The position numbers were made by a program, and so were the translations under genes. From a virus (taxonomy: Duplodnaviria > Caudoviricetes), in IMG/VR virus record IMGVR_UViG_3300021425_002207, positions 1 through 53,394 of that record: a stretch of 53,394 nt of DNA; one strand, written 5' to 3'. Numbering within the stretch: the stretch's first letter is position 1; each line of letters starts with the position of its first letter. Shown in pieces: positions 3-16,661 of the stretch. Under the pieces are notes generated by a model. The model was not told the origin of the DNA, did not search any database, and saw only the letters and a program-made list of their open reading frames with translations.

Positions 3-3000
3 GGTGGAAAGCGTCGTAGTCGTAGTGTTCGGCGTGTTAGGAGCACTGCTCGTCGTGCCAAGTCAGCACAGTTGCTTTCACATAACGAAATTGTTGAGGT
101 TTCACCTTTACGCATTGCCGTTCGTGAATCTAGAGACTTCGGTGGTGTTTTAGTACAGCCTATTGCTGGCCGTCAATCCGCTGTTGACATGAAGGCGGCT
201 ATGTTCGCCATGTATACTGCGAAGGTTCCGGTTAATGGCGAGGTCAGCGAAAAACGTGTTGGCGTTTTTGGTAGTTCTAGCCGTGCAGGTCAGGCGGCTC
301 AGGCGGCTGGTACAATTATTCTTCCGGGTGACATTTCAGATATTCGCAGTCCTATCCGTTCGCAGATTTACGAGACTTTGACTCCGGGTGGCGGTCGTGG
401 GTTGCCGAGTGGCCGTCGTTTGATTCGTGGTGCTGGCCGTACTGGTAGGGGCGCACGCAACAAGTTCCGTTGTCCTCCGGGTTTCCAGAAGGGCGGCACT
501 TTTACGAACGCACAGTTCAGTACTTGTGGCGCACAGATTTTGGGTATTCCGGGTAAAGGTGTAGGTTCGCCTTCTTCTGGCGCTCAGCGTGCTTTGGCTG
601 CTTTGGCTAGGGATGCTTCGCTTGTGCGTGAGATTGGCGATCTTCGCAGCAACCGTAATCCTTATGATATTATTCGTGCGGCGCAGATTCCTGTAGCACC
701 TAAGAAGGGTAGCCCAACTCGCCGCCAGATTTCAATTAACACTGTTCTTGCCCGAGCCGACGAGCAAGACTTTTCAGTTCGTGCTGTCCGTAGGGATGGC
801 GTGATCCTTGAACCTGTTGTTTCATTGCAGGCTCTTGGTAAACTTGATGAGTTTGACGACTTGGCTGATGGTACACTGATTGATCGTTATGAGAGCGGTC
901 AAATTGGTAAGGATATTGTTCCTGCTTTCTCTACCGGTCTTCGTGATATCTATGTTGATATTCCTGAGTCTGGTGCTGTACGTGTGAGTAGAGTTGGTGG
1001 AGAGTTGTCTCCTACCGAGGTTGAAAGTTTGCGTCGTGTGTTCCCGACTTCTTTGCGGCGTGCCGCAGACTTGCCTGATCCTAGTGCTGCTATTCGTAAT
1101 TATGCGGATGGGACAGACGGTAGGTTGACTGTTGAGTTTGGTGAACTTAAAAACAACAAGTTTGAAGTTAGTGCTAGTAAGAACGAGTTGATTCGTGTTC
1201 AGACTGCTGGTGGCAAGTCGCTTACAGTTCCTCGCTGGGTGTACGAGACATTCTTGTCTCGGTCTGCTCCTCGTCGTGCAAAAGATGCGCCTGTTTACGA
1301 AATCATGTCAGAAGAGAAGGTGTCAAACCCTTTTTTCTTGTCCACCAAGACGATTACCTCTCTCACACATCGAACCGCTAACTATCACGAGTTGATTGAG
1401 GTTCGGGCTGCTATCTTTGCGGCTAACCGTGAAAACATTCAGGTAAAGCGGATTGGTGGTGGCGCACGTCGTGCTGGTGGCCGTTCTAGGGCTTTGTTTG
1501 ATCCGGGCTTGAACCGTTACAGGTGTCCTCCGGGAACTCGTTATGGTGGTCGCATTGCTGACCAGTTTGGACGTAATTGTGGCTATTCTCTTCCACGTAC
1601 TGTCGTGAATAGTCTTGTCGATTTGGGTATCCGTATTGAGGACGCTATGGAGAAGCGTCGTCAGCGTAGGCTGGAGCGGGGTTCTCGGCGTGAGCGTCTT
1701 GGCGCAGCAATCAAGGAAAAGTATGATAATGCTTTGAATGGTCTTGCTGATGTCATGGATAAACTTGCTAATGTTTTGGATAAGACTGAGGATAAGCGTC
1801 CGGGGAAGATTGGTCCTAGTATTGCTGAGCGTCGTAATGCTGCTCAGTTAACTGATGAAGATCGTGATTTGCTTAGTGGTGAGCCGTTGGCAGATGCGTT
1901 GGATAATTTGAAGAATGTGTTGGACGATCAGGATTTCCAGAATCCTGATATTCCTGAGATTCAGAAGGCATATAAGGCTGTTGAGAAGGCTGCTGGTTTG
2001 GAGGCTGGTCGTCTTACTGATAATCCTGCGAAGAATGAGAAAGATCGTAGTATTGGCCGTCGTATCCTTGATGCTATTGCTAACATCATGGATAGGTTGG
2101 CTGATTTTGTTGATCCTGATACTTCTCGCCGTGATCGGCGTGAGCGTCGTCCTGCTGCTTCTGCTGCACCCGCTCCTAAGACTCCTCAGGCTCCGAAGAA
2201 GTTCGATTCTCCACGTAAGCCCGAAAAACTGGACAACTTTGGTCAACTTTCTATTGGTGGTCGCCGCAAGAAGGTAGACGTTCCTGAACTTCGTGATTTG
2301 TCAGATGAGGATAAGAGTAAGTTAGATAATGCTGTTCAGTCAGAGTTTAACTTTTTGTCAGGATTCTGGGCAAGTCGTTTAAACAAGGGTATTAACGATT
2401 TCTCTGAAAAAGATATTCGTAAGTACTTAAAAGCAAACAAGAACAGCACAGATGCTCGTGTTGAGCGTCGTCGGTATAACGATTGGCTTGAACTTAACGA
2501 GTTGAAGCGTGCCCAAGATGACGGGTCGTTTGATGGAGATTACGAAGATTTCGTGGGTAGGCTTGCGCCGAACCGTCGTGATTCTATTGTAAGTTCGATC
2601 AAGCCTCCTGAAGACCCTCCGGGTGATGCTGGCGATGCGGCTGGTGCGGTAGATATAGAGACTCCTGCCGATGAGTTACCTTCTCCCGGCGTAGATTACT
2701 CTTCGCAGGGCTTCGCAAAAGCACGTGGCAGCGTCGATACGCTTGAATTTTTGAATGGTCTATCTGACGAGGACTTAGAAAACTATAAGCAGGCTCACAT
2801 TGCTGAAAATTCTGCCCAGCAGGCTGCGGGTGGTCCACCTAGCAAGGTAATTGAGGACCGGATTGCACAGATTGGTCTGGTTCAGGCTATTCGTGATAAG
2901 CAGCGAGGTGTTTCTAAGCAACCGCCGACCAACAAAGACTTGTCTACAGAGGGCTTCTTTGAAGAGCGTAATAAGTTTGGCAAGCCGGTTGACAATTTTA

Positions 3001-6000
3001 TAAAGTCTTTGACCGACGAAGAACTTGACGGATACATCGAATCTTTTGATAAGAAGAAGAACGATCCTTTTGAGCCTCCTCCATCTGCCTCAATGAAGAA
3101 AGCACGAGAGTTGCTTGGCGTGGAGCGTGAAGAACGTGACGCTAAGAATAAACAAGATGCTCTAGTTGATAACGCAGATTTAGAAATGGGTGACCCTGAT
3201 CCTGATGGGTTCCATCCTGCGAGCAAGGTTGAGGACGCTGTAAACAATCCTGACCTCAATGATACCACGAATGTACCAGACAGTATCATTGACGAGAGCG
3301 CTAGCAATGTCACGGGCGTAAAGTCTACGGCAAGTAATTACAAGTATGTAGAAAACATTTATGATGATGAGCCTTTTAATGCTGAGCAGATTGGAAAAGC
3401 CAATCCAGCAACTTTGTTTGATGATCCCGATTTCGATATCAACGATCCTAAGACTCGTGTTGGCGTCCTCGTAGTAGACCGGGAGACTGGTCGTGTGATG
3501 GTGCGTCACACTAAGGACAACTTTGACGGTTATGGTTGGACATTCAGCAAGGGCGGAATCGACAATGGTGAGACTGTACATGATGCGGCTATGCGGGAGT
3601 TGTTTGAAGAAACAGGTTTGTCGGCAGACGATGTTAATGTTGTTGGTGCCTTAAATGGGTCGTATGGTGGCGGGGGCGGTAGTAAGAACTATTTCTTCAT
3701 TGCTCAGGTCAGCAATGGTGCAGATAAGTTTAATATTGATGGAAACGACGAGACAGATGATCTTGTTTTTGCTGATCCTGCTGATGTGGCTAGTTTCATT
3801 GACAAAGACACCACAAATACTGTTGGTAAAGCACGTGATTTGAAGATTGCCCAAGATTTAGATTCGTGGATTACTAGTGGCGGTGTTACTGGGGAAAAGA
3901 ATGAGAAGTTCCAGACTTCTGTTATCAACAACTTAAATGAGAGTTCTAGCCCGACAAAATCTTCTGGGGGTATTCCTGAAGATACACTGACTCCAACGAA
4001 GCATAAAGCATCTCTTGTACCCAATAACGATATGGTGCAAAAGTCAAAGCAGACAGATTTACCTCTTAAAAAAGTTGCTGCAACTATTGATGAGAATGAT
4101 GGGGCTAAGCGAGAGGCTGCTGCACAACTGTTGGCAGACTCTGGCACTGTCGATGCTTTGAATGATCCAGAGTTCTTGTTAACCGACTTTGATGTCAACG
4201 ATGAAATGTTTGACGCTATTAGCGACGGGTCAGTTAGCCGTTACGTTGAGATTCCTACGGGTGATCAGGGCATCAATGGTCAGGTCGGGTTCCCGACCAA
4301 GATGTTCCGTGATGAAGAAACCGGAAATATTTACGTTCTGAAGAAGCCCGCCCGCAACGATAAAGAGCACTTGTCTGAATCTTCAGCAGCGATTGTGGCA
4401 CAAGACTTGGGACTTCCTGTTCCTGATGTGACATTTGCTGGCAACGACTACCTTGTTAGCGGTGATGCTGAAGGGCCTTATGGGCAGAAGGTTACCAAGT
4501 TTGGTGATACAACCAACCGCCCTATGATTATTCAGCATGTCGGTAACGTGTTAGACATGAACGAAGGTGGCGGGTCAACAATTAACCATAAGCAGATGGG
4601 TGCCATGCTTGCTCAGCAATATCTAATTGGTGAGCCAGATAACCACGGTTCTAACAGGGTCAACATGGTGGATGCTAACGGCAAGAAATCAGTCTTTGCC
4701 TTTGATGCTGGTAAAGCATTCATTCCCCACGACGAAAAGTTTGGTGAAGAATTCTTTGGTTCTAGGTTTGGTGAAAGCATCAAGAGTCTTCCGGCTGAAG
4801 ATCGTAAGGCCATTATTGCTGAAACACAGAAAGCACTGAGCGGATTCGATGTGGAGGCTTCTCAGAAACGAATCCGGGATCAGGTTGATGCTGGCAATTT
4901 AACTGAGGAAGAGGCTGGCCGCTTGTTAGAGATTTCTGACTTTGTTGCACAACGCCACGGGGCGTGGAAGACTGCACTGGGTAAGGATTTTGCTGATGAT
5001 GCTTTGACTGACGATGAGTTAGAGTCAGAACTGTCGCCGTCCATTAAGATGTTCACTCCGCCTGAATCATCTTCTAAGTTTGGTAAGATTGCTGACCCTA
5101 ATGGAAATCCAACCGATCCTGATACTTATGCTGAGGGTGTTGGCCCACTGGCTTCTAAACTTTCCATTTCAGCGAATGATGTGACCAACATTCAACAGTC
5201 CTCGTCGCAGGGTGTAGTTAAGGCAATGAATAGTCCTTCGCAGATAAACAGCAAGGATGATGGCGGATATAGCCCAATGCCGGTGGTGAATGAGTTTTCG
5301 TTGGACGGTCCTGCAATTCAGGGTCAGAAAGTTTCCTTTACTGCTGGACATTTTGTAAATGAGGGCGGCGTGAACGATGGAGAGACGAAGTTTGTTAAGA
5401 ATGCCGAGTTCTCTTTAAATCTTTCCCCTGAAGCACATCAGAATTTGATTGATCAGATTGACTCTAGTGATATCCCATCTTATAAAATTTCTGGCGCACA
5501 GGAAACAGTGTTTCATTTTTCTGGAACGAACTCACCTACTTTGAAGGTTGATTCGTCTATAGACGGTACGACTATTTCAAAGAGTAAGTTTGATGGTGCT
5601 GGAAGAACTACCCTTTCCTCTTCTTATGGTCCGGGGAGTGGTAATGAATTTATTCCTAGTGACGATGGCCTTGTACGGGTTGCGGATTTTGGTGATGTTA
5701 AGGTGATGGTTTACCCTGAAGTAGCCACTGGACAAGGTGGGGAGCATGGGCTAAACCGTCGTGTCCGTGTCTTTGTTGGCGGGGATACTAGGGAATCTCT
5801 AAAGGATGGCACTGCAACGCAGGCTAGCATTGAAAGCATTTTTGCTAAAATTGGCGTTGACGCTTCGCCTCCTACAGAAACACAAATCAGGGATCAGTTG
5901 GCTCGTGACTTCTTGCGACATGCCACAAAGATGGATGCAGGTAAGAATCCTTCACCGACTTATCATAGTGGATATGGTACAGACTACGATAGTCCTGAAA

Positions 6001-6959
6001 CAATTAGCACGGCGTTAAGTAATTTATCTGCTTTCGGTATTAAGCCTGAAGATATTTCTTATTCGCTGGCAGGAGGTAAGGCTCATGTTACTTTAACTCC
6101 TGAAGCATCAAAGCGGGCGGCAAAAGAATTAGGAAAGTTACGGGCAGAAAAATTAGGACAATCTGATAAGCACACTGGCAATGTTCCTAAAGTACCGTGG
6201 TTCTACTCTAACCAGAACATCAGTATTGGAGGCTCTGACGAGCGGCAAAAGTTGATTAGCCGACTGTTCATTGATGGATCACATACCGGTTCTCTGGATA
6301 GGGCTGAAAAGTCGCAAAGTGCTGCGGCGTTTACTAATAGACGAGGCATGTCTGGAGATACCGACGCTGCTACCGGTTCAGGTGAAGGTATGTATCTACG
6401 TATGGCAGACCACGCTACTAGCGGCGCTGATGGTTCTTCTGGTGTAATTTTATTTAGCGATGATATGGTCGGTAAATTAGATGCCCAGTGGGCCGACTTT
6501 GACGTGTGGGGTAACCCTCATAGTTCGACACCTAAGAAGTGGAGTTCTACTGGTGGTCCATGGCAACATTATGTTAATGGCAATCAAACAGCCTCTTCAT
6601 CAAATGAGGTGTACATTCCTCATCAGGTTCCGTGGGCTGAATCTATGGTTAACTTAGGTGATGTGTCGTCAACAAGTCTTGAATCGCTTGAGAGCGACAT
6701 CCGTGACAGCAATATTGATTTGAGCGTTTTGAATAGCAGAAACATTATTGTGAAGAGCGGGTCGGGATATCGTTTCGTGGTTTGGGAGCAAGGTCCGAAC
6801 GGTCCTGTCATGAAGTTAGGCCCAGTTGTTAAGCGGGCACAACTTCCGAGTGCAAAGATCACTGGAAAACTAGACACATTCAAGACCGCAGAAATTAACG
6901 TATCAGAAAATACTCCTGCTACACCTAGCACTAGTACCTTTGATCCGGGTATAATTTAA
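3..6959 (+). CDS. Giant head-module multidomain protein (5'-truncated): RCPPG motifs, Nudix hydrolase, HipA/PI3-PI4-kinase-like domain, possible C-terminal ADP-ribosyltransferase-like domain
   Basis: The frame is open from nt 3 (GGKRRSRSVRR...), so the TTG at 72 is probably not the true start. Nudix box GGIDNGETVHDAAMRELFEETGL at ~3552-3620. Kinase-like motifs YVLKK..E, LGLPVP, DNHGSN and FDAGKAF at ~4330-4721. Lies upstream of the capsid gene. Confidence 0.85.
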   Translation, partial: GGKRRSRSVRRVRSTARRAKSAQLLSHNEIVEVSPLRIAVRESRDFGGVLVQPIAGRQSAVDMKAAMFAMYTAKVPVNGEVSEKRVGVFGSSSRAGQAAQAAGTIILPGDISDIRSPIRSQIYETLTPGGGRGLPSGRRLIRGAGRTGRGARNKFRCPPGFQKGGTFTNAQFSTCGAQILGIPGKGVGSPSSGAQRALAALARDASLVREIGDLRSNRNPYDIIRAAQIPVAPKKGSPTRRQISINTVLARADEQDFSVRAVRRDGVILEPVVSLQALGKLDEFDDLADGTLIDRYESGQIGKDIVPAFSTGLRDIYVDIPESGAVRVSRVGGELSPTEVESLRRVFPTSLRRAADLPDPSAAIRNYADGTDGRLTVEFGELKNNKFEVSASKNELIRVQTAGGKSLTVPRWVYETFLSRSAPRRAKDAPVYEIMSEEKVSNPFFLSTKTITSLTHRTANYHELIEVRAAIFAANRENIQVKRIGGGARRAGGRSRALFDPGLNRYRCPPGTRYGGRIADQFGRNCGYSLPRTVVNSLVDLGIRIEDAMEKRRQRRLERGSRRERLGAAIKEKYDNALNGLADVMDKLANVLDKTEDKRPGKIGPSIAERRNAAQLTDEDRDLLSGEPLADALDNLKNVLDDQDFQNPDIPEIQKAYKAVEKAAGLEAGRLTDNPAKNEKDRSIGRRILDAIANIMDRLADFVDPDTSRRDRRERRPAASAAPAPKTPQAPKKFDSPRKPEKLDNFGQLSIGGRRKKVDVPELRDLSDEDKSKLDNAVQSEFNFLSGFWASRLNKGINDFSEKDIRKYLKANKNSTDARVERRRYNDWLELNELKRAQDDGSFDGDYEDFVGRLAPNRRDSIVSSIKPPEDPPGDAGDAAGAVDIETPADELPSPGVDYSSQGFAKARGSVDTLEFLNGLSDEDLENYKQAHIAENSAQQAAGGPPSKVIEDRIAQIGLVQAIRDKQRGVSKQPPTNKDLSTEGFFEERNKFGKPVDNFIKSLTDEELDGYIESFDKKKNDPFEPPPSASMKKARELLGVEREERDAKNKQDALVDNADLEMGDPDPDGFHPASKVEDAVNNPDLNDTTNVPDSIIDESASNVTGVKSTASNYKYVENIYDDEPFNAEQIGKANPATLFDDPDFDINDPKTRVGVLVVDRETGRVMVRHTKDNFDGYGWTFSKGGIDNGETVHDAAMRELFEETGLSADDVNVVGALNGSYGGGGGSKNYFFIAQVSNGADKFNIDGNDETDDLVFADPADVASFIDKDTTNTVGKARDLKIAQDLDSWITSGGVTGEKNEKFQTSVINNLNESSSPTKSSGGIPEDTLTPTKHKASLVPNNDMVQKSKQTDLPLKKVAATIDENDGAKREAAAQLLADSGTVDALNDPEFLLTDFDVNDEMFDAISDGSVSRYVEIPTGDQGINGQVGFPTKMFRDEETGNIYVLKKPARNDKEHLSESSAAIVAQDLGLPVPDVTFAGNDYLVSGDAEGPYGQKVTKFGDTTNRPMIIQHVGNVLDMNEGGGSTINHKQMGAMLAQQYLIGEPDNHGSNRVNMVDANGKKSVFAFDAGKAFIPHDEKFGEEFFGSRFGESIKSLPAEDRKAIIAETQKALSGFDVEASQKRIRDQVDAGNLTEEEAGRLLEISDFVAQRHGAWKTALGKDFADDALTDDELESELSPSIKMFTPPESSSKFGKIADPNGNPTDPDTYAEGVGPLASKLSISANDVTNIQQSSSQGVVKAMNSPSQINSKDDGGYSPMPVVNEFSLDGPAIQGQKVSFTAGHFVNEGGVNDGETKFVKNAEFSLNLSPEAHQNLIDQIDSSDIPSYKISGAQETVFHFSGTNSPTLKVDSSIDGTTISKSKFDGAGRTTLSSSYGPGSGNEFIPSDDGLVRVADFGDVKVMVYPEVATGQGGEHGLNRRVRVFVGGDTRESLKDGTATQASIESIFAKIGVDASPPTETQIRDQLARDFLRHATKMDAGKNPSPTYHSGYGTDYDSPETISTALSNLSAFGIKPEDISYSLAGGKAHVTLTPEASKRAAKELGKLRAEKLGQSDKHTGNVPKVPWFYSNQNISIGGSDERQKLISRLFIDGSHTGSLDRAEKSQSAAAFTNRRGMSGDTDAATGSGEGMYLRMADHATSGADGSSGVILFSDDMVGKLDAQWADFDVWGNPHSSTPKKWSSTGGPWQHYVNGNQTASSSNEVYIPHQVPWAESMVNLGDVSSTSLESLESDIRDSNIDLSVLNSRNIIVKSGSGYRFVVWEQGPNGPVMKLGPVVKRAQLPSAKITGKLDTFKTAEINVSENTPATPSTSTFDPGII

Positions 6960-6973
6960 AGAAGAAAGGCAGG

Positions 6974-7435
6974 GTGCAGATGTTAGATTTAGAAAAACTT
7001 CCGAAGTGGTTTACAGACGAAGGAGAAAACGAAGAAGGCTATTTACGGTTTGTGCCGTTCACTAAAGCGCATTTCTTCTTGTTGGACAAAAAGGTTAATC
7101 CTTTTGGAAATATTGAGTTTCCTGATGAAATTAAAGGACGTATCAAAGTTAAGGGAGACGATGCGATGGTCGTCAACGGGTTCACAGTTACCTCCACTTC
7201 TGATCCACGACGGCTTAGGGTTAAGACTAATACTAACGAAGAATACGATTTAAAGTTTTTAACAGACTCAATTACATTAGAGCCGGAGATTGACGGTGAT
7301 AGCATTAGTTTCACGGTCGAAGAAGACGGTGTGACGCCTGCGGGAGACCCTTTTACGAAACTAGTTATATCTGAATTGTCGCCAGATGAACTAAGCGCCG
7401 TTAAGTCTGCCTATCAGGGAGATGATTCAGAATGA
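6974..7435 (+). CDS. Hypothetical acidic protein (153 aa)
   Basis: ORF starts 14 nt after the giant gene; purine-rich RBS (GAAAGG); no recognisable motif. Confidence 0.7.
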   Translation: MQMLDLEKLPKWFTDEGENEEGYLRFVPFTKAHFFLLDKKVNPFGNIEFPDEIKGRIKVKGDDAMVVNGFTVTSTSDPRRLRVKTNTNEEYDLKFLTDSITLEPEIDGDSISFTVEEDGVTPAGDPFTKLVISELSPDELSAVKSAYQGDDSE

Positions 7436-7770
7436 TTTTTGCTTTTGATCTTCCGATTACTCCTGTAAGGGCGATGGCTCTTGAGCGGGCACGTCCTTCA
7501 GATAGACGAAAGTTGGGTTTCAGTCCGTTGGCGGCTGAGCGTGTTTGGGCTTGGGACCCAAAAAACGAAACATTGAAAGTATTTTTGAAGCCTGATTCTT
7601 TTGCTTCAAGAGACCATAAACAGTTTAGGGCAGACTTCGGAAAGCGTCCTCCCGCCGAGCAGTGGGAGATTGTTTCTCGTGGAGATGCAAGTCCTAAATA
7701 TATCCGCCAATTTGTTGATGATCCTGAGTTGTTCAAAGACTTGAAGTGGGTTAAGTTGACAGACAAGTAG
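7432..7770 (+). CDS. Hypothetical protein (112 aa)
   Basis: ATGA start/stop overlap with the previous gene, consistent with translational coupling. Confidence 0.7.
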   Translation: MIFAFDLPITPVRAMALERARPSDRRKLGFSPLAAERVWAWDPKNETLKVFLKPDSFASRDHKQFRADFGKRPPAEQWEIVSRGDASPKYIRQFVDDPELFKDLKWVKLTDK

Positions 7771-7785
7771 GAGTCGTGCTATAAT
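7756..7785 (+). promoter_or_regulatory. Sigma70-type promoter
   Basis: TTGACA (7756) - 18 nt - TATAAT (7780), with an extended -10 TG. Confidence 0.75.
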
Positions 7786-7813
7786 TGTATGATTCACACG
7801 AAAGGAGAAAAAC

Positions 7814-8167
7814 ATGTGGATGTACACAAAGCACGGCGCTTATTCGGTTGTCGAAGACTATTCTGGAAATGAGATGGTTGTTCGCACCCGTCATCGCCAG
7901 TACCTTGAAAATTTGATGGAGGCGGCAGAGGTTTCTCACGAAATCATTGTCACCCCGGAACGAGACTACGAGTTCCGCATTGTGATTAGCAAGGCGGAGT
8001 GGGAAGTTATCGGAAAGTATCTACTTTCTTCGATTACATACCCAGACTTTAAGAGTCATCTTCACCGGTCGGGATTCTTCGATGATTCCGTGAAGGAGAC
8101 TTACGCAATCTACACAGGCGCATATAATAGTTATGTGAAGAATTCTAATTCTATTTATGCTTACTAA
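7814..8167 (+). CDS. Conserved phage hypothetical protein
   Basis: RBS GAAAGGAG. The pattern MW..TK.G.YSVV...VR.R...L..L...DY.FR is recalled from other phage proteins of unknown function. Confidence 0.8.
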   Translation: MWMYTKHGAYSVVEDYSGNEMVVRTRHRQYLENLMEAAEVSHEIIVTPERDYEFRIVISKAEWEVIGKYLLSSITYPDFKSHLHRSGFFDDSVKETYAIYTGAYNSYVKNSNSIYAY

Positions 8168-8181: not shown

Positions 8182-9693
8182 ATGGCTAAGGACCCCTTAG
8201 TTGGGCAGACGGTACCAACAAAGAAACTAGCGGAAGAACTGTCACGCATTTTGGGCTGTTCTGGTTCGCACCGAGTTGGTGACGATGCTTGGGGTCCTTG
8301 CGAGTCTCCACGTGACTTGATGAAACTCATTGAGTTAGGTAACCCTGCTTTCCGTGAATGGAAGAAAACCCAGACACGGCGTAAAGCAATTGAAGACATG
8401 ATGTCCCTTAAGGCTGCTAAAACCAAGGGCGTTTTCAAGACTCGTGATGAAGCCGAAATGGCGGCTGTTCGCCTAGGTTGTACTGGTGCTCACCAAATCC
8501 GTCAGGGTGTTTGGGCACCATGTTCTACACCTGAAGAACATAATGCGGCTCACGGCAATGCTGGCGCTGGTCGTTCTCGTATTTTGAGGGCACAGCGACC
8601 GGCACGCCGTGTGGTCGTTGATCGTCGTGTTTGGGAGAATCTGCGTGAGCGTGGCCCTCGTGGTATTGAAACTTTGCCCGGAGGTGGGTTGGTTTCAGGT
8701 AAGGCTGCTGCTAGCGATTCGTTTAAACCTACTGCTGGTATGGTTGAAGAAGCCAAGAAGGGTTTGAAGTGGCGTCGTGAGACTGGCCGTGGTGGAACGA
8801 TGGTCGGCATTGCTCGTGCTCGTGATATTGCGAATGGTAAGAATCTTCCTTATCGCACGGTCAAGAGAGTAAAGGCGTATTTTGATCGTCATCAGAGTGA
8901 TTCAAAGGCTGAGGGCTATCGTCCCGGCGAGAAGGGTTTCCCATCTAATGGTCGGATCGCTTGGGCACTGTGGGGCGGCGATGCCGGATATACGTGGGCG
9001 AAAGATATTGTTGAGCGGGTAGAGGGCACTCAGAAGTCTTTTGAGACTATTGAAGAGAAGCGTTTCTACACCCGTGCCCGCCGTATGGATTATGCGAAGC
9101 GGGGTCTAGCCCTTCCTGATGGCTCGTACCCTATTCGTGATGTGGGCGATCTTCGGAATGCTATTCAGGCTTACGGACTTGGTAAAGATCGTGAAGCGGC
9201 TAAAAGGCATATAATGAAGCGTGCCCGTGCATTGGGACGAACTGACTTGATCCCTGATAATTGGAAGACTCGGGAGAAGGCGGCTAGACGATATGGTCCG
9301 AATGATCCGAAGACTCCTGCTAAGCCGTCTGAGCGTATTAGTGGTTCACGTCGGAATAAGCCGGGAACGGCTTCTGGTACTCGTGGTGGTATCAAATTGT
9401 CGGCGGCTGTTGAGGCATCTTTAAAGAATAAAGTAAAAGAGCACAATGAGAAGATGGACAAGCGCAACAAGGAAGAGCGTCGTGTCACTCTCGGAATGTT
9501 GAAAGCCGTATGGCGACGAGGGGCTGGGGCTTTCTCCGCTACTCACCGTCCGGGCATGGGACGCCAGCAATGGGCAATGGGCCGTGTCAACGCATTCTTA
9601 AGACTTGTGTCTAGCGGTAAACCGTCAAACCCTAAGTACACAACCGACAACGATTTGCTCCCTAAGAAGCATCCACGGTCCACTCGCAAGTAG
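8182..9693 (+). CDS. Basic multidomain head-associated protein (two GC.G.H..W.PC modules, AWALWGGDAG domain, DUF6582-like, DUF5824-like)
   Basis: Motifs GCSGSH..WGPC and GCTGAH..WAPC; RIAWALWGGDAG; ALPDGSYPI..DLRNAI; LKAVWRRGAGAF..QWAMGRVNAFL. Directly upstream of the capsid gene. Confidence 0.75.
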   Translation: MAKDPLVGQTVPTKKLAEELSRILGCSGSHRVGDDAWGPCESPRDLMKLIELGNPAFREWKKTQTRRKAIEDMMSLKAAKTKGVFKTRDEAEMAAVRLGCTGAHQIRQGVWAPCSTPEEHNAAHGNAGAGRSRILRAQRPARRVVVDRRVWENLRERGPRGIETLPGGGLVSGKAAASDSFKPTAGMVEEAKKGLKWRRETGRGGTMVGIARARDIANGKNLPYRTVKRVKAYFDRHQSDSKAEGYRPGEKGFPSNGRIAWALWGGDAGYTWAKDIVERVEGTQKSFETIEEKRFYTRARRMDYAKRGLALPDGSYPIRDVGDLRNAIQAYGLGKDREAAKRHIMKRARALGRTDLIPDNWKTREKAARRYGPNDPKTPAKPSERISGSRRNKPGTASGTRGGIKLSAAVEASLKNKVKEHNEKMDKRNKEERRVTLGMLKAVWRRGAGAFSATHRPGMGRQQWAMGRVNAFLRLVSSGKPSNPKYTTDNDLLPKKHPRSTRK

Positions 9694-9762
9694 ACTACTT
9701 GATCTAACTGAGTGATATACACTACACTAGTATTTAGTACCGCATAAACAGATTATTACAAA

Positions 9763-9801
9763 AGTTCCCGTGATTCTCTTTACGTTGGTGCTAGCATAAT
9801 A
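9763..9801 (+). promoter_or_regulatory. Putative late promoter upstream of the major capsid gene
   Basis: AGTTCCCGTGATT..TTGGTGCTAGCATAATA aligns without gaps to 18717-18755 upstream of the tail sheath gene. Confidence 0.6.
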
Positions 9802-9887
9802 AGTGACTGGTGCCGCCACCATATTTTTTTATGTTGGGTCGCCTGTCATCTAACAGTATGTGAAACTCAAACATTAAGGAGAACAAC

Positions 9888-11183
9888 ATGAGTTTTGATG
9901 AAGGTCGGCTCAACGAACTGAAGAGCGCTCTAGACTCAAAGATGTCAGAGCAGCAGCAGATCGCTGATTCGATGCAGTTTGAGGGTAGCACCCTCATCGC
10001 TGACGACGAGAAGAAGTCAGCATTCCAGAACAACATGACCCAGATTCGTGAAATCAAGGGTCTTATTGAGGACATGACCGCTCTTCGTGACGTGTCAGCA
10101 TGGTCATCAGAGGCTGAGTACAAGTCAGTCGCTGCTGAGGTTGCTGCGGGCGTTGAGGCTGAGGTTGCCGCTCACCGTCGTGGTTCGGTTGGCGAGCAGT
10201 TCCTTGCTTCAGAAGAGTTCAAGTCACTTCAGGGCGGTAAGGCTGGCGTTAACATGTCATCTCCTTTCCAAGCCAAGTCACTTCACACCAAGGACATCTA
10301 CTCAGGTCTGCCCACCGGCACCCCTGACGCCTTTGGTGCTGTTGAGCGTGATGGCATTGTCCCAATTGCACAGCGTCGTAGCCGTGTGCGTGACCTTTTC
10401 CCGGCACGTACCACCAACGCTGCTGTCATTGAGTACTTCCGTCAGAGCGGTTTCACGAACGCTGCGTCCGTTGTTCCTGAGTACTCCTCAAGCAACTTCG
10501 GTGCGAAGCCACAGTCGTCAATGACTTTCGTTGGCGAGCAGGCTCCTGTTCGTACCATCGCTCACTGGGAAGCCGCTCACCGGAACGTTCTCGCTGACGA
10601 GCCGCAGTTGCGTTCGATCATCGACAACGAACTCCTTTACGGTCTTCGTCTGACCGAGGACAACCAGATTCTCTCAGGTGCTGGCACCGGTGAGGACCTT
10701 ACTGGTATCCTTAACACTTCAGGCATTCAGACCTATGCATGGTCAGATGGTGCAACCGATCCGGTTGCTGACACTAAGGCTGACGCTCTTCGTCGTGCGG
10801 CTACGCTTGCGTACCTCGCCTACTACGAGCCGACCGGCATGATTGTCCACCCATCAGACTGGGAAGACATCGAACTCACCAAGAACGAGCAGGGCACGTA
10901 CCTTCTTGCCATGTCAGTTGCTGGTGGTGCCGAGTCACGTGTCTGGCGTATTCCTGTCATCGACACTCCTGCCATTGATGAGGGCACTGCTCTCGTTGGT
11001 GCTTTCGGTACCGGTGCTCAGTTGTACGACCGTGAGGCCGCTTCAATCCGTATTTCGGAACAGCACTCAGACTTCTTCGTCCGCAACGCCATCGTGGTGC
11101 TTGCTGAAGAGCGTCTGGCTCTCGCTGTGAAGCGTCCAGAGGCATTCGTCAAGGTTGACTTCGACGCTGCTCCTAGTGCCTGA
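9888..11183 (+). CDS. Major capsid protein, HK97 fold
   Basis: Coiled-coil N-terminal delta domain; TIAHW, L.D.PQLRSIIDNELLYGL...ED.QIL.G.G and F.RNAIVVLAEERLALAV.RPEAF motifs; RBS AAGGAG; strongly biased codon usage. Confidence 0.95.
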   Translation: MSFDEGRLNELKSALDSKMSEQQQIADSMQFEGSTLIADDEKKSAFQNNMTQIREIKGLIEDMTALRDVSAWSSEAEYKSVAAEVAAGVEAEVAAHRRGSVGEQFLASEEFKSLQGGKAGVNMSSPFQAKSLHTKDIYSGLPTGTPDAFGAVERDGIVPIAQRRSRVRDLFPARTTNAAVIEYFRQSGFTNAASVVPEYSSSNFGAKPQSSMTFVGEQAPVRTIAHWEAAHRNVLADEPQLRSIIDNELLYGLRLTEDNQILSGAGTGEDLTGILNTSGIQTYAWSDGATDPVADTKADALRRAATLAYLAYYEPTGMIVHPSDWEDIELTKNEQGTYLLAMSVAGGAESRVWRIPVIDTPAIDEGTALVGAFGTGAQLYDREAASIRISEQHSDFFVRNAIVVLAEERLALAVKRPEAFVKVDFDAAPSA

Positions 11184-11228
11184 TCCTAGAGATTAGATGA
11201 GTGGTCGCTGAAACCTAGCGACTAGTTC

Positions 11229-11260
11229 AAAGGCCCCCCGGCTTAGGCTGGGGGGCTTTT
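11229..11260 (+). terminator. Intrinsic terminator after the capsid gene
   Basis: GCCCCCCGGC-TTAG-GCTGGGGGGC hairpin followed by TTTT. Confidence 0.85.
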
Positions 11261-11273
11261 GCTATACTAGGGT

Positions 11274-12005
11274 ATGCCTATTTTTGATAACGACTCCAAC
11301 TTTCCAGTGCCTACGTGGACGAAGGATGACGTTGTTGTTTTAGAAGCGATTGATGATTACTATGCTGTAGGTATCGTCAGGTTCTTGGGGTTCTTAATTA
11401 GCAATGAAGGAATGGTTGCTGACTCCACGTTGGATTTGATTTTAGTTGTTCAGTCTATAGTCAATAATGCGGACGAAAAGTATTCGTTTGATGATGCGGA
11501 GAGAATTGTCACACTTTCCAGTGAGTTCTGTTTAGTGGATTGCGTGTACGAGAATCAGGTTCTTGCGATGATAGAGTTGCAGGATAACGCTGTTTTGTTT
11601 TTGGCTATTCAAGGTGAGGACCACTACGCTTTGGAAGCCGCCGTGTGCTTGGCCGAGGACGAGAAGTCTTTACTCCACGATGGTTTAGTTAGGCCGTCCC
11701 TTTCTTTGTTTGGGGACTGGGAAAACATTGGTGCTGTAGTGTTGGAATCTATGTTGACTCGCCGTCTACTATCTGATAGTATAGGCTCTCTTATGGATCA
11801 CACTTCTAACTCCGGTCTATGGATCACGTCTGAAGTTGAGTTCGTAGATGTTATACGCAAGTTGTGTGCTGTTGGTTTGTTGAGTGTTGACATTGTTGAC
11901 ACTGGTAGAGCAATGGTTGCTGTTCAGGAGAAGGCTGCTGGATTGTTTCTTTTGTTTTCCGGCAGGACTGAACTGGCCAAAGAGTTGGCTGACTTGTCGA
12001 TTTGA
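11274..12005 (+). CDS. Hypothetical acidic protein (243 aa), probably leaderless
   Basis: TGCTATACT extended -10 ends 5 nt before the ATG; no SD sequence. Confidence 0.75.
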   Translation: MPIFDNDSNFPVPTWTKDDVVVLEAIDDYYAVGIVRFLGFLISNEGMVADSTLDLILVVQSIVNNADEKYSFDDAERIVTLSSEFCLVDCVYENQVLAMIELQDNAVLFLAIQGEDHYALEAAVCLAEDEKSLLHDGLVRPSLSLFGDWENIGAVVLESMLTRRLLSDSIGSLMDHTSNSGLWITSEVEFVDVIRKLCAVGLLSVDIVDTGRAMVAVQEKAAGLFLLFSGRTELAKELADLSI

Positions 12006-12030
12006 CACGACTGTTACAGAGTGATATGAT
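12002..12030 (+). promoter_or_regulatory. Sigma70-type promoter upstream of the RNR gene
   Basis: TTGACA - 17 nt - TATGAT with a TG extension. Confidence 0.65.
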
Positions 12031-12139
12031 TTCTTCACGAAATTGTGCAAGTCTCATGATGACTTGACAGTTGCAGACTCGCCATAGGCGTTAGAATACT
12101 AAAACCATTTAAATCACACCCACAGAAAGAGAGACAAAC

Positions 12140-14095
12140 GTGGACCCTTTTTTCATTTCCGACGACTTCGCTGACCAGTATGCTGACAAGATGCCCCCTT
12201 GGGGTTTCAACGGCCTTGGGTACGTTACCTATAAGCGTACCTACGCTCGTCCTATTTTTGAGGAGGGCACTAACGTTGTCGCCCGAACTGAAGAGTGGCA
12301 CGAGACTATTCAACGTGTGGTGAATGGTGCTCAGAGTATCGGTGCGCAGTTGACGGAAGATGAGGCTCAGCGTCTCTATGACTATCTGTTCAACCTTAAG
12401 GGTTCAGTTGCTGGCCGGATGTTGTGGCAGTTGGGTACTGAGAACAATCAGCGCCTCGGCGGTGACAGCCTTGTTAACTGCTGGTTCGTTGACGTTCAGA
12501 AGCCAACTGACTTTTCTTGGGCTGTTGAGCGTTTGATGCTTGGCGGCGGCGTAGGTTTCTCTTGTGATAAGCCTGAGCGACTTGGTGTTGTCCGCTCTGC
12601 GTGGGTTTCACATCAGGATGCGAACGACTCTGACTTTATCGTTCCCGATACTCGTGAGGGTTGGGGTAATCTTATTCGCAAGGTGTTTGAGTGCTACCTT
12701 GGTGGCGACGACGACCCGCAGTATATGAGTTACGCCACGCATCTTATTCGTCCTGCCGGTGTCCCAATCAAGACCTTCGGTGGTACTGCTTCAGGTCCTG
12801 ACATTCTTATCTCTGGTGTGGAGAAGATTTGTGATGTTCTTGATGGTGCGGTTGGCCGCACGATGACTTCAGTTGAAGTTCTTGATTGCATGAACATTAT
12901 TGGCTCTATCGTTGTTGCCGGTAACGTTCGCCGCAGCGCTGAAATTGCTGTTGGCCGTATTGACGACGAGGATTACTTGATGGCTAAGCGTTGGGACTTG
13001 GGTGACATTCCTATTGAGCGTGCCATGTCGAACAACACTGTTTTTGTCTCTCCTGAGCAGATGAAGGACATGCCTGACCTGATCTGGGAAGGATACAAGG
13101 GCAATGGTGAGCCTTATGGTTTCTTTAACCTTGAGGCTTCTCGCCAGTTTGGGCGTATGGGTGAAGAGCGACCTGATCCGTCTATTGTCGGCGTTAACCC
13201 ATGTGCCGAAATCCCGCTGGCTAACCGTGAGTCTTGCAACTTGTCTGAGATTTTCTTGCCTATGATTGACTCTCCTGAAGAGTTGAAGGATGTTGCACGC
13301 CTACTATACAAGGTGCAGAAGGCGACTGCGGCTCTGTCGTACCTTGACCCTGCATCGGACAAGATCACTTCACAGAACATGCGTCTTGGTCTTGGTGTTA
13401 CTGGTGTTACTCAGGCTATGGACAAGATTGACTGGCTTGATGAGACCTATGTTTCGTTGCGTGCTTTGGATGCCGAGTGGTCAGCAGAGCGTGGATGGCC
13501 TGAGTCTGTTCGCCTTACCACGATTAAGCCTTCGGGTACTTTGAGCCTTCTTCCGGGTGTTACTCCCGGTGTTCACCCCGGCTTCAGTCAGTACTTTGTA
13601 AAGCGTATGCGTATGGCTTCGGGTGACGTTCTTGTCAACTACTGCCGGTCAAAGGGCTTCTATGTTGAGCCTCTTCGCAACTTTGATGGTTCAGAAGATC
13701 ACCGTACAGTTGTTGTTGAGTTCCCTTGTGCGTTCCCTGATGGTACGATTGAGGCTAAGGATATGACTGCTATTCAGCAGATGGACCTTGTTCGTCGTCT
13801 TCAGAAAGTGTGGGCGGATAACGCTATTTCTGTGACGGTCTACTACAAGAGCGAAGAGTTGGACGGTATTCGTGAGTACCTTGCTGAGCACTGGCATGAG
13901 ATGAAGTCTGTATCATTCCTCTTGCACAGCGAGCACGGATTCGATCAGGCTCCTATGGGTGAGTTGACAAAGGATGAGTACGAGCACGTGCTCAGCACTA
14001 CATCACCACTCGGTGAGAAGTTGACTGGCTCAACGATGATGTCAGACGATGAGTTTGACGCCGAATGCGCCACAGGTGCGTGTCCAATCCGATAA
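12140..14095 (+). CDS. nrdJ: Class II (adenosylcobalamin-dependent) ribonucleotide reductase, monomeric type
   Basis: GRMLWQLG, NCWF, GGGVGFS, VVAGNVRRSAEI, catalytic NPCAEI, TIKPSGT and a C-terminal Cys pair CATGACPIR; no beta-subunit gene nearby. Confidence 0.93.
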   Translation: MDPFFISDDFADQYADKMPPWGFNGLGYVTYKRTYARPIFEEGTNVVARTEEWHETIQRVVNGAQSIGAQLTEDEAQRLYDYLFNLKGSVAGRMLWQLGTENNQRLGGDSLVNCWFVDVQKPTDFSWAVERLMLGGGVGFSCDKPERLGVVRSAWVSHQDANDSDFIVPDTREGWGNLIRKVFECYLGGDDDPQYMSYATHLIRPAGVPIKTFGGTASGPDILISGVEKICDVLDGAVGRTMTSVEVLDCMNIIGSIVVAGNVRRSAEIAVGRIDDEDYLMAKRWDLGDIPIERAMSNNTVFVSPEQMKDMPDLIWEGYKGNGEPYGFFNLEASRQFGRMGEERPDPSIVGVNPCAEIPLANRESCNLSEIFLPMIDSPEELKDVARLLYKVQKATAALSYLDPASDKITSQNMRLGLGVTGVTQAMDKIDWLDETYVSLRALDAEWSAERGWPESVRLTTIKPSGTLSLLPGVTPGVHPGFSQYFVKRMRMASGDVLVNYCRSKGFYVEPLRNFDGSEDHRTVVVEFPCAFPDGTIEAKDMTAIQQMDLVRRLQKVWADNAISVTVYYKSEELDGIREYLAEHWHEMKSVSFLLHSEHGFDQAPMGELTKDEYEHVLSTTSPLGEKLTGSTMMSDDEFDAECATGACPIR

Positions 14096-14145
14096 TACTG
14101 AAAGTGCTACTTGCTTATTTATTTCGACGCAGGTAGTATATCTGT

Positions 14146-14658
14146 ATGATTGGAGTAACACAGCAATTTCCCCCGTTCGGCATGGTTGGTGTCGATAGTA
14201 ACAACGAATTTGTCGATATCACGCTTGATGACTTCGACGGCATGTGGAAGGTATTTTATTTCTACCCGAAAGATTTTACCTTTATTTGTCCTACAGAGAT
14301 TCAACAAATGGATCGTCTTGTAGATGATGATGTTGCAGTTGTTGGGTTCAGTGGAGACAACGAATATTGCAAGTTGAACTGGAAACAGTCCAACGATTTG
14401 ATTGGCGCTATTTCACACACTCTTGGTGCCGACACTGGCCTGTACTTAGTTCGGACATTAGGCATTGAGGACGACATCGAAGGCGTCGCTTTGCGTGCCA
14501 CGTACATTGTTGACGACTTTAACGTTATCCGGTCTGTCACTGTGAACGACTTAGACACTGGTCGGAATGTGGATGAGACTATCAGAACGTTGAATGCTTT
14601 ACGGGCAGGTGGGTTGACTGGTTGCTCGTGGAATCCGGGTGACTCATTTGTTGGATAG
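14146..14658 (+). CDS. ahpC: Peroxiredoxin (AhpC family)
   Basis: FYPKDFTFICPTE peroxidatic motif, GRNVDETIR and C-terminal CSWNPG. Leaderless after TTGCTT-17-TAGTAT. Confidence 0.92.
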   Translation: MIGVTQQFPPFGMVGVDSNNEFVDITLDDFDGMWKVFYFYPKDFTFICPTEIQQMDRLVDDDVAVVGFSGDNEYCKLNWKQSNDLIGAISHTLGADTGLYLVRTLGIEDDIEGVALRATYIVDDFNVIRSVTVNDLDTGRNVDETIRTLNALRAGGLTGCSWNPGDSFVG

Positions 14659-14714
14659 GACGATATTATAATTTCTAAAGTTGCAATCTGATGAAAGTTT
14701 GGGGTGTAAATTAA

Positions 14715-14794
14715 TACTTGTACCGGCAAGTAGGCTAACCCCGAAGGAGGAGATTGTGGATATCGGTTAAAGTGCCGGTAGCCGATAGGCAATC
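14715..14794 (+). ncRNA. Candidate structured RNA with two hairpins whose loops are complementary
   Basis: Stems TACTTG/CAAGTA, GATTGT/GCAATC and TATCGGTTA/TAGCCGATA. TACCGGCA (14721) is the reverse complement of TGCCGGTA (14773). Confidence 0.4.
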
Positions 14795-14803
14795 AAATTA
14801 TCT

Positions 14804-14845
14804 AGGCGGGGTCTGGTCGCTTGAACCGGACCCCGCTTTTTGTTT
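14804..14845 (+). terminator. Intrinsic terminator
   Basis: GCGGGGTCTGGT/ACCGGACCCCGC stem followed by TTTTTGTTT. Confidence 0.85.
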
Positions 14846-14856
14846 AGGATAATAGC

Positions 14857-15210
14857 ATGTCTAGTCTCGGGGAACTAAAGCAAAGTAAAGTCTTTATTGA
14901 TTTGTCGTATCTTGCCGACTTGATTGAGACCCGTGGTATTTCCACTACGACTCCATTGAACGATGATGGGGAAGTGTCACTTTCTTTTGCCCTTGCATCA
15001 CTTTGTGGTTATAAAGGTTATCCTGAAGTAGACGACTTTTTTTATTTTGTGGATAATGTTCCCGCTTTGTATCGCCCGCAGTTTATTCGCTGTTGGGAGG
15101 CGATTGAGTTAGAGGTTGAACAAGATATTGTTTCGTGGTCAGAAAAAGTAGGTACTGCTGAGACTGTTCGCAGGTTAAGGTCACTTTCAAAAGAAATTGA
15201 GTTATCTTAA
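14857..15210 (+). CDS. Hypothetical protein (117 aa), leaderless
   Basis: TTGAAC-18-TAGGAT ends 6 nt before the ATG. Confidence 0.7.
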   Translation: MSSLGELKQSKVFIDLSYLADLIETRGISTTTPLNDDGEVSLSFALASLCGYKGYPEVDDFFYFVDNVPALYRPQFIRCWEAIELEVEQDIVSWSEKVGTAETVRRLRSLSKEIELS

Positions 15211-15252
15211 CGTCCACTTGACACCAGCCTCGCTTTGTATTACGATAGACTC

Positions 15253-15636
15253 ATGAACCACCATGAGCGATGGAAGAAACATTATACTGCTTTGGTACAG
15301 TACCAGAATCGGTACGGTGATGCAATGCCACCCAGCGGTCACACTGAGTTCTTGCCAAGTGGAGAAGAAATCAACTTGGGTAACTGGGTTAGTTACATGA
15401 GAACACGGTATAAGCAGAATGCGTTGTCAGATGACCGTGTTAGATTGCTGGAGTCGCTGCCCACGTGGGAGTGGGGTCCTGTGCGGCCCGGACCAAAGTC
15501 AAAGAATGAAGTAACTGAACGTAACGACAGTATTGTTGAGAACCACAAGGCGGGTATGTCTTTGTCGGTAATTGCAAGGCGTTATGGTTTATCTAGACAG
15601 AGAGTACATCAAATCGTAAAGGAGAGTTATGTCTAG
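15253..15636 (+). CDS. Helicase-associated (HA) domain plus C-terminal HTH; putative DNA-binding regulator
   Basis: W...Y.AL.QY...YG...P...LGNWVSYMR..YK...LS.DRV.LLESL..WEW, then MSLSVIARRYGLSRQRVHQIV. Start revised to ATG 15253 because TTGACA-17-TACGAT covers the TTG at 15235. Confidence 0.8.
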   Translation: MNHHERWKKHYTALVQYQNRYGDAMPPSGHTEFLPSGEEINLGNWVSYMRTRYKQNALSDDRVRLLESLPTWEWGPVRPGPKSKNEVTERNDSIVENHKAGMSLSVIARRYGLSRQRVHQIVKESYV

Positions 15637-16418: not shown

Positions 16419-16487
16419 GGAGTGACCTGTAGATACTGTTAAGGTACGGTATCATATACATGGAGCAGATGTTATCTAGGAGGAATT

Positions 16488-16640: not shown

Positions 16641-16661
16641 TTTTACTTTTTTTGGGGTGAC

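Follow-up and report, generated by a model that had tools for sequence, protein, structure and literature searches.

Introduction

Proteins that travel with phage DNA act before phage gene expression, and the carriers known for them are short targeting peptides (T4), fusions to MuF or portal proteins and a few dedicated giants (N4 and crAss-like phages). The Alt and internal proteins of T4, the virion RNA polymerase of N4 and the cargo of crAss-like phages are large or enzymatic, are packed into the capsid and are ejected for host takeover; T4 uses a short cleavable capsid-targeting peptide for this. The subject of the present work is a giant gene of an uncultured phage (Duplodnaviria; Caudoviricetes) that occupies nt 3..6959 of IMG/VR record IMGVR_UViG_3300021425_002207. 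The stretch of DNA analysed, here called the window, is the whole of that record, which is linear, 53,394 bases long and itself a fragment (CheckV completeness 60%). A sequence-only reading of the window, made without database searches, had proposed that this gene encodes a capsid-delivered protein with several effector domains. Our analysis indicates that the product is probably a polyvalent, polymorphic head-module protein that is packaged by means of its N-terminal module, ejected with the DNA and active at the start of infection. In sequence and fold it showed no relation to the T4, N4 and crAss-like proteins, and the putative carrier is a module of ~850 aa.

For polyvalent proteins, injection along with the DNA has been proposed (Iyer, Burroughs, Anand, de Souza & Aravind, 2017; PMC5512222), in a paper that also describes Alt. 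In the sections of that paper compared here, the likeness lies in a giant polypeptide with disparate domains, a virion-gene context and proposed entry with the DNA, and both kinase domains and Nudix-linked contexts are mentioned. The giant protein is polyvalent in the descriptive sense, combining a Nudix domain, a kinase-like domain and a domain without a known family in one polypeptide with head-module synteny. The kinase clade treated in those sections is of the Ser/Thr/Tyr type and lacks a C-terminal subdomain, whereas the domain found here is HipA_2/PI3-PI4-kinase-like; a further difference, in a comparison that excludes the supplementary lists of the paper, is that the N-terminal module matches no Pfam or NCBIfam family.

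A second group, the MuF polymorphic toxins, has, in the parts of the paper used for comparison, a conserved N-terminal head part, a variable C-terminal domain, a place in the packaging/head module and possible small cognate genes (Jamet et al., 2017; PMC5576092), all of which recall the present locus. The giant protein differs from those toxins in that it has no MuF domain, its carrier is about four times longer, its cargo is multi-domain and its source is a contractile-tailed phage that appears to be of the lytic type.

Packaging in the head, especially in myoviruses, has been proposed for Nudix and ADP-ribosyltransferase (ART) domains that occur in fusions with MuF, portal or prohead protease (Iyer et al., 2022; PMC9503650). 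As far as the compared text of that paper extends, the likeness consists in a Nudix domain attached to or encoded with head proteins and in proposed packaging and early action on NAD/ADP-ribose-derived signals. The Nudix domains described there are mostly of the T4 NudE or NadM clades and fused to MuF, portal or protease, whereas here the domain lies in the middle of the protein, has RppH as its nearest family and is joined to a different carrier. The principle of head delivery is thus already known, as the passages of PMC9503650 and PMC5512222 covered here propose it for fusions of Nudix, ART and other domains to MuF, portal or protease. New here are a long conserved carrier without a family, at least eight cargo classes, the pair of a Nudix and a HipA_2/PI3-PI4-kinase-like domain and a hypervariable cassette of two genes. 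No description of the giant-protein family was found in a literature search outside which the supplementary domain catalogues of the two papers lay.

Extent of the giant gene and exchange of its cargo

The giant protein consists of a conserved basic N-terminal module (N module, ~815-890 aa) that is joined via acidic linkers to an exchangeable cargo half. Its features in the window are as follows (ORF, open reading frame; pI, isoelectric point).

3..6959, plus strand: giant ORF, 5'-truncated at the window start and open from the window's first bases; 2318 of 2409 aa; stop codon at 6957-6959
3..2330, plus strand: conserved basic N module (full-length aa 95-870); 40-69% identity in relatives with other cargo
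471..530, plus strand: first C-P-P-G...C-G motif; the C, P, P, G and distal C-G invariant in 25/25 aligned rows
1524..1583, plus strand: second C-P-P-G...C-G motif; both Cys, the second Pro and both Gly invariant in 25/25 rows, the first Pro in at least 90%
2613..3422, plus strand: acidic, poorly conserved linker region, aa 871-1140; pI 4.3, net charge -28
3450..3788, plus strand: Nudix hydrolase domain (PF00293), aa 1150-1262, with the Nudix box at nt 3552-3620
4143..5102, plus strand: HipA_2/PI3-PI4-kinase-like domain, aa 1381-1700, with the catalytic-loop motif from nt 4632 and the F-D-A-G motif from nt 4701
5340..6956, plus strand: fast-evolving C-terminal region without a known family, aa 1780-2318 (539 aa)
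~5379-5867, plus strand: subdomain A of the C-terminal region; weak matches to CYTH/TTM- or TBP-like folds
~6105-6917, plus strand: subdomain B of the C-terminal region; weak ART-fold matches

A 97%-identical relative from a large protein collection is 2409 aa long, and in the alignment residue 1 of the window product pairs with its residue 95; the first 94 residues are therefore absent from the window, which carries the 3' 96% of the gene, and the full-length gene with its ATG can be read in locus L003 (L003:9719-16948). As 2318 codons are open and 61-97% identity is kept in 15 other proteins, the frame is not a chance ORF, in agreement with the single ORF of more than 2300 aa that the sequence-only reading had described. 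The window product has a pI of 12.0 over aa 1-60 and of 8.2-11.5 over aa 61-870, while every segment of aa 871-1960 lies at pI 4.3-4.7. The basic N-terminal region of the earlier description is thus truly basic, but it is not the true N-terminus, 94 residues being missing; the acidic linkers of that description correspond to segments aa 871-1140, 1301-1400 and 1691-1790, which are acidic and weakly conserved. Between the window and the otherwise near-identical L003, nucleotide identity dips to 80-92% in the acidic linkers, at nt 2103-3000 and 3903-4200.

Forty-eight relatives were compared. Fifteen of these share the whole architecture (61-97% identity, 2409-2453 aa); for the remaining 33 the match is limited to the N module, over aa ~10-700 of the window's 2318-aa product (P0001) and in some cases over a second block at aa ~745-890, with 40-69% identity and total lengths of 1769-3905 aa. 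A hidden Markov model (HMM) of the N module placed the end of the module at aa 812-889 in each of the 48 relatives. By single linkage at ≥60% reciprocal coverage, the cargo halves fell into eight classes of 15, 15, 5, 4, 4, 2, 2 and 1 members, so that the pattern of a conserved N-terminus with swapped effector domains, which had been named in advance as a check on the delivery proposal, was found. Pfam searches of 18 members with other cargo identified Sigma70_r4 in four and a PolyA_pol-type nucleotidyltransferase, HTH_3 and PI3_PI4_kinase in three each, and one distant member of the Nudix-kinase class additionally carries a 2H phosphoesterase. In relatives of 3500-3900 aa (L016 7541-18160 and L017 9560-20506; P0043-P0048), Sigma70 region 4, a helix-turn-helix (HTH) domain and a PolyA_pol-type nucleotidyltransferase occur on the same N module, which hints at a cargo type directed at transcription.

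The family belongs to uncultured aquatic phages. A tblastn search of the whole giant protein against 50,697 cultured phage records gave zero matches at E ≤1e-5. A scan of bacterial and archaeal genomes yielded seven loci, all in metagenome-assembled genomes, labelled as five different phyla; these are most likely mis-binned phage contigs, and for this reason no host is named.

The conserved N-terminal module

More than 100 columns of a 25-member alignment of the N module were invariant. The two C-P-P-G...C-G motifs, which have a spacer of 14 residues, were present as two copies in the 25 aligned family members, and their four cysteines might bind a metal or pair as disulfides.

No family and no usable match was obtained for the N module in Pfam, NCBIfam or the ESM Atlas. 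Its AlphaFold2 model had a mean predicted local distance difference test score (pLDDT) of 61.7. The parts modelled with confidence were a small helical domain (full-length aa 30-85), an α/β domain (aa 330-530; window nt ~708-1310) and long helices (aa 590-800; nt ~1488-2120), with R/G-rich low-confidence stretches between them. A Foldseek search of the PDB with this model (pLDDT 61.7) returned 0 matches at E ≤0.001. Fold searches gave generic helical-bundle matches on aa 658-803 only, the α/β domain (full-length aa 330-530) not having been effectively searched.

One short stretch of the module recurs in a described head protein. A protein of Streptomyces phage Abt2graduatex2, annotated as 'capsid maturation protease and MuF-like fusion protein', aligned over its aa 291-331 with full-length aa 47-89 of the giant (49% identity, pairwise E 9e-10); its MuF domain spans aa 115-241, and the matching stretch lies just behind that domain. 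The same residues (full-length aa 47-89) matched the unannotated phrog_6439 (E 1.8e-7). When the N module was searched by tblastn against the cultured phage records at E ≤0.1, only three records (two phages) were matched, and only over aa 34-85, that is, the 40-residue motif. For MuF, Pfam gave no match in the window product (2318 aa) or within the N-terminal 900 aa of the full-length protein.

At four loci (L025, L020, L021 and L022) the N module was split into two ORFs near aa 448, so the first half of the carrier can be a separate polypeptide. In L025 the two parts lie at 9650-11356 and 11446-21939 and comprise a 568-aa ORF and an ORF of at least 3497 aa in another frame.

These properties bear on the alternative that the protein is mainly a structural component of the internal head, such as a DNA-condensing, inner-body or ejection-conduit protein in which the N module is essential and the enzymes are minor passengers. 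The module is strongly basic, reaching pI 12, and R/G-rich, and its model contains long helices as well as long stretches of low confidence; the module is far better conserved than the cargo, and the split near aa 448 at four loci is what would be expected of a module with a function of its own. Against this stands the strict retention of the Nudix box and of the kinase motifs in 12/12 relatives down to 37-38% identity, which argues for a selected enzymatic function. A primarily structural role seems improbable to us as the whole explanation; it overlaps with packaging and ejection of an enzymatic cargo, the explanation that we prefer, and does not exclude it.

Gene order in the head module

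The gene order around the giant gene was examined in 23 IMG/VR loci encoding relatives of the N-terminal 700 residues. The window by itself reveals only the downstream half of the head module, capsid protein included; the relevant genes are given below.

8182..9693, plus strand: p503, a basic (pI 10.6) head-module protein with two DUF3721 motifs and DUF5824; syntenic wherever the loci reach
9888..11183, plus strand: major capsid protein (MCP), HK97 type, the downstream anchor of the head module; Phage_capsid E 4e-46
47212-53392: tail-fibre-like genes

The upstream half was read from L003, where the giant gene is preceded by TerL (minus strand), a portal (PF04860), a 193-aa MuF protein (PF04233), an S78 prohead protease of 544 aa and, as the direct upstream neighbour, an acidic 647-aa protein (pI 4.1). 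It is followed by three small ORFs, the basic 503-aa protein (pI 10.6) and the capsid gene. The order portal, MuF, S78 protease, acidic protein, giant, small ORFs, p503 and MCP was kept in 23/23 loci as far as each contig reaches, and both L003 and this synteny bear out the placement of the giant gene in the head module that had been made from the window. The same reading had likened the giant to MuF-type proteins, a likeness that has to be given up: MuF is a gene of its own (L003:5271-5852, 193 aa) and no MuF domain lies inside the giant, which is therefore not a member of the MuF family. A portal fusion, suggested by a match to phrog_15528 ('portal protein'), was also rejected, as the match covers the Nudix region only (aa 1117-1222) and a normal, separate portal gene of 486 aa lies upstream of the giant.

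The two proteins flanking the giant and its small ORFs are related in part: aa 290-367 of p503 and aa 539-616 of the acidic 647-aa protein, in the C-terminal part of the latter, were 49% identical over a 78-residue segment. A 33-residue DUF3721 motif was seen in three head-module proteins, namely the prohead protease (L003 5933-7567), the acidic 647-aa protein (L003 7595-9538) and p503 (window 8182-9693; two copies), and its recurrence may mark a common assembly or targeting element.

Within the structural block, a class II (B12-dependent) ribonucleotide reductase is encoded directly behind the capsid gene and an acidic ORF of 243 aa (window 12140-14095; also 11274-12005). The window also encodes tail sheath, tape measure, baseplate and tail-fibre-like proteins in addition to the HK97-type capsid protein, on which basis the phage is a contractile-tailed one; it is uncultured and appears to be lytic-type.

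The nearest cultured head modules were those of Gordonia and Brevibacterium myophages (47-48% identity in the MCP, 44-45% in the portal). In Gordonia phage Chidiebere (L002 739-5734) and Brevibacterium phage Cantare (L027 3214-8619), separate genes lie between portal and protease; they encode an RNA ligase, a VIP2-like ART (Chidiebere) and a protein of 971-1040 aa, and resemble unfused head-module cargo. The giant protein showed no similarity to the large head-module proteins Cantare gp11 and gp12 and Chidiebere gp25-28 (BLASTP, E ≤0.01; N-module HMM, E ≤10).

The position among head genes could be a matter of transcription timing, the product being an unpackaged, late-expressed cytoplasmic multi-enzyme whose targets in the producing cell could be, for instance, RNA ends, nucleotide pools or defence signals late in infection. 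Searches with Pfam and NCBIfam revealed no known type of packaging signal, a metabolic gene does occur in the structural block (the class II ribonucleotide reductase after the capsid gene), and Nudix proteins are common as stand-alone phage proteins, according to the portion of the survey covered here (PMC9503650). What a soluble enzyme hardly explains is a non-enzymatic basic module of 815-890 aa with 100+ invariant columns over 25 rows. Also against it are the fixed site, with the protease and scaffold-like protein on one side and the capsid gene on the other, as far as the 23 loci extend, the motif in common with a MuF fusion head protein, and a conserved front with a swapped rear, which is the hallmark of delivered proteins. 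We regard an unpackaged enzyme as unlikely, and packaging in the head as the probable course.

Nudix and kinase-like domains

The cargo of the window product begins with the Nudix domain, which matched PF00293 over aa 1150-1262 with E 2.3e-15 (57.2 bits against a gathering cut-off of 21.1). The consensus of the Nudix box is G-x5-E-x7-R-E-U-x-E-E-x-G-U. The 23-residue box at aa 1184-1206 fits it at every position and was kept in 12/12 aligned relatives, down to the 37-38%-identical P0051 and P0052, so that the full Nudix box noticed in the bare sequence is intact. The nearest named families were RppH (PDB E 1.1e-6; NCBIfam E 5.7e-11) and NudE. None of the NCBIfam equivalog cut-offs was reached, the best scores being 42.2 bits against 241 for RppH and 39.2 against 169 for NudE; since the scores are far below every equivalog cut-off, the substrate class is not assignable.

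For the following domain, the best Pfam match of the excised sequence was HipA_2 (PF20613), with E 2.4e-5 and 24.2 bits, under the cut-off of 27. HipA_2 matched 5/11 family members at E ≤1, and PF00454 matched 1/11 (E 0.002). Kinases of this fold are recognized by a catalytic Lys, a Glu, a D-x-H-x-x-N loop and a metal-binding D-x-G motif. All four have counterparts here, the Lys, Glu, D-N-H-x-x-N and F-D-A-G motifs being invariant in 12/12 relatives. The domain thus resembles the HipA and PI3-PI4 kinases (PF20613 and PF00454) in its conserved motifs and in its best Pfam match, and is unlike them in scoring below the cut-offs of both families. To speak of a HipA/PI3-4K-like catalytic set, as had been done from the translation, is accordingly a fair description of the motifs, with the reservation that the HipA_2 score is below its cut-off. 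A local HMM of the kinase-like domain also matched the C-terminal parts of 14/33 relatives with other cargo, with E-values that apply to a small local database; the domains identified as PF00454 in three of the 18 scanned relatives were within its reach. A profile search of the PDB with the kinase alignment was uninformative on the kinase, the long rows having produced a 1383-position profile for which the best 60 of 112 matches (E ≤10) were all Nudix.

C-terminal region and small downstream ORFs

The C-terminal region was the fastest-evolving part of the protein, with a column identity of 27-50% compared with 70-94% in the N module. Its model (aa 1780-2318; mean pLDDT 71.3, predicted template modelling score (pTM) 0.59) comprised two subdomains, consistent with the third globular domain that had been noticed at this end. 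When aa 1120-2318 were searched exhaustively with HMMER against 1.84 billion representatives, six of the 150 matches listed covered the region, all of them members of the same protein family or fragments of it. Foldseek searches with the model gave 0 matches at E ≤0.001 in the PDB and 0 at the same threshold in BFVD, where the best match was an uncharacterised mimivirus protein (3.6e-3). In the ESM Atlas the best score for the region was 0.85, to unnamed clusters, and was uninformative.

The weak matches of the model to ART, CYTH/TTM and TBP folds recur across two programs, which is suggestive, although every value is in the range common for chance arrangements. By sequence, no ART family was found for 15 members of the alignment at E ≤10, in searches where the HMMER filters drop most weak matches, and none was found in NCBIfam. 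The catalytic triad of ART enzymes is of the H-Y-E or R-S-E type. The invariant columns (F372, D388, G391, P407, N465, W482, G494, G509 and K515) contain no placeable H/R...S/Y...E set, and the N-E-V-Y-I-P stretch of the query is not conserved in the C-terminal alignment. Filing the domain as ART or CYTH was rejected in view of the lack of any Foldseek match in the PDB or BFVD at E ≤0.001. The possible ART of the sequence-only reading thus has weak fold matches on subdomain B in its favour, and neither an ART family by sequence nor a conserved triad; 'ART-like' may be kept as a lead from modelling and is not a finding.

Three small ORFs follow the giant gene, each preceded by a Shine-Dalgarno-like sequence.

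6974..7435, plus strand: s153, acidic (pI 4.4); translation may in fact begin at the ATG at 6980
7432..7770, plus strand: s112, basic (pI 9.7); overlaps the s153 stop by 4 nt
7814..8167, plus strand: s117, third small ORF, distributed like s112; 84-99% identity

The 4-nt overlap and the Shine-Dalgarno-like sequences agree with the initial description of the ORFs at 6974-7435 and 7432-7770 as two small, tightly coupled genes; s117 was not part of that description. No family match was obtained for s153, s112 or s117. A TATAAT hexamer was seen, outside any promoter scan, at 7781-7786, in the 43-nt gap after s112 and 28 nt before the s117 start.

Homologues of the three ORFs were found only beside giants of the Nudix-kinase class, and at loci with other cargo (L012, L016 and L017) the slot before p503 was occupied by unrelated ORFs of 53-67 aa and 183-208 aa. 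Relative to the window, C-terminal identities of 96, 62, 56, 31 and 27-34% were paired with s153 identities of 84, 53 and 39% and, for the last two, undetectable, while s112 stayed at 77-96% and s117 at 84-99%. Over 15 pairs from six related loci, which are not independent, the Spearman coefficient of C-terminal identity was 0.87 with the identity of the slot ORF and 0.13 with that of s112. Co-varying downstream ORFs had been anticipated; the expectation was borne out for 6974-7435, which tracks the C-terminal domain, and not for 7432-7770.

The loci formed two allele classes, {window, L003, L006, L007} and {L014, L040}. L014 and L040 were 48% identical in the C-terminal region and 39% in the slot ORF, and at most 33% and 28%, respectively, identical to the first class. 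The contrast between the window and L014 was confined to part of the locus. At the protein level, identity was 99% in segment N1, 92% in N2, 59% in the Nudix domain, 66% in the kinase-like domain and 27-34% in the C-terminal region; s153 was undetectable by BLAST, whereas s112 (82%), s117 (86%), p503 (98%) and the MCP (95%) were again similar. The portal, MuF, protease, N1 segment, p503 and capsid protein of L014 were 95-100% identical to the window or L003. At the nucleotide level, identity between the window and L014 was 91-98% at nt 3-2100, 35-50% at nt 5100-7500 and 88-98% after nt 8100. A local minimum in the s153 region (80-88% nucleotide identity) is seen even in the comparison with L003, which is otherwise near-identical to the window.

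The identity correlation and the L014 divergence trough together indicate that the C-terminal domain and s153 are replaced or diversifying as one unit, and this occurs even between otherwise near-identical phages. A complex prediction for the C-terminal region and s153 (score 0.00, mark 0.32, with the partner's own fold uncertain) speaks neither for nor against binding.

A hypervariable C-terminus with a co-varying small downstream gene is a pattern known from tail-fibre tips and their chaperones. The trough, which is centred on the C-terminal domain and s153, could in that light reflect a domain displayed outside the capsid as a variable binder, with s153 as its assembly chaperone, like a receptor-binding protein and its chaperone. 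We think this very improbable, given that two intracellular-type enzymes lie on the same polypeptide, that the fold searches with the C-terminal model revealed no Ig-like, lectin or fibre fold, and that the gene is in the head module while the tail-fibre-like genes are at 47212-53392. Delivery of the domain from inside the capsid is the account that we carry forward.

Discussion

Under the account of a packaged and ejected protein, the N module would be the carrier that takes the giant into the prohead, and the giant would then leave the capsid with the DNA and act at the very start of infection. The grounds for proposing carriage and ejection are the place of the gene between the protease and an acidic scaffold-like protein on one side and the capsid gene on the other, and the recurrence of the first helical motif of the giant behind MuF in a head protein of a Streptomyces phage. 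Helpers in loading might be found in the acidic 647-aa protein and the basic p503; they share the 78-residue segment (49%) and DUF3721 motifs with each other and, in the case of the motifs, with the protease. Once delivered, the Nudix domain would hydrolyse a nucleoside-diphosphate-X compound, for which 5'-end groups of RNA, compounds of the ADP-ribose type and nucleotide (immune) signals are candidates. The kinase would phosphorylate a host component, and the variable end domain may engage a fast-changing host target or defence. The s153 protein could be a dedicated partner of the end domain, acting either as an inhibitor in the producing cell or as a helper in folding or packaging.

Several observations weigh against this account. 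Neither a capsid-targeting, a portal-binding nor a MuF domain was recognisable in the N module with Pfam and NCBIfam, and the apparent link to MuF proteins consists of one 40-residue motif with E 0.01-0.04 in the database search. None of the cultured records searched contained a relative, so that it is from gene order and sequence that we infer incorporation into the virion. The nearest cultured head modules, as judged from their sequences, carry cargo-like genes separately, and none of these is like the N module. The kinase-like domain scores below the Pfam cut-off, its assignment resting on sequence motifs, and it recurs in at least 5/8 cargo classes; the cargo is thus not freely swapped, and part of it may be semi-core. 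The correlation between the C-terminal region and s153 comes from 15 non-independent pairs, and linkage of two neighbouring, rapidly changing segments within a single recombination patch would produce such a correlation even if there were no physical interaction.

A more specific version can be advanced tentatively. It is possible that the ~850-aa N module is an undescribed carrier for capsid loading and ejection in uncultured aquatic contractile-tailed phages, serving at least eight cargo types, among them the Nudix-kinase type, giants of 3500-3900 aa with sigma region 4, HTH and nucleotidyltransferase domains, and PI3/PI4-kinase-like enzymes, and that the Nudix-kinase type ends in a divergent ART-fold toxin that is restrained by a co-evolving s153 and exchanged with it, from one near-identical phage to another, as a two-gene cassette.

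Delivered proteins are prime candidates for first-strike host takeover and counter-defence. If the account given here is true, the family adds to the known carriers a new, long and very conserved one, with a natural library of at least eight cargo sets. Near-identical phages that differ mainly in the end domain and the next gene amount to a natural experiment, which could point to the host component engaged in the arms race. With its Nudix and kinase-like domains on a single delivered polypeptide, the protein would offer a testable combination of signal destruction with modification of host proteins. The general picture of polyvalent proteins would be unchanged by this, and would be extended to an uncultured group of aquatic phages with specific domains.

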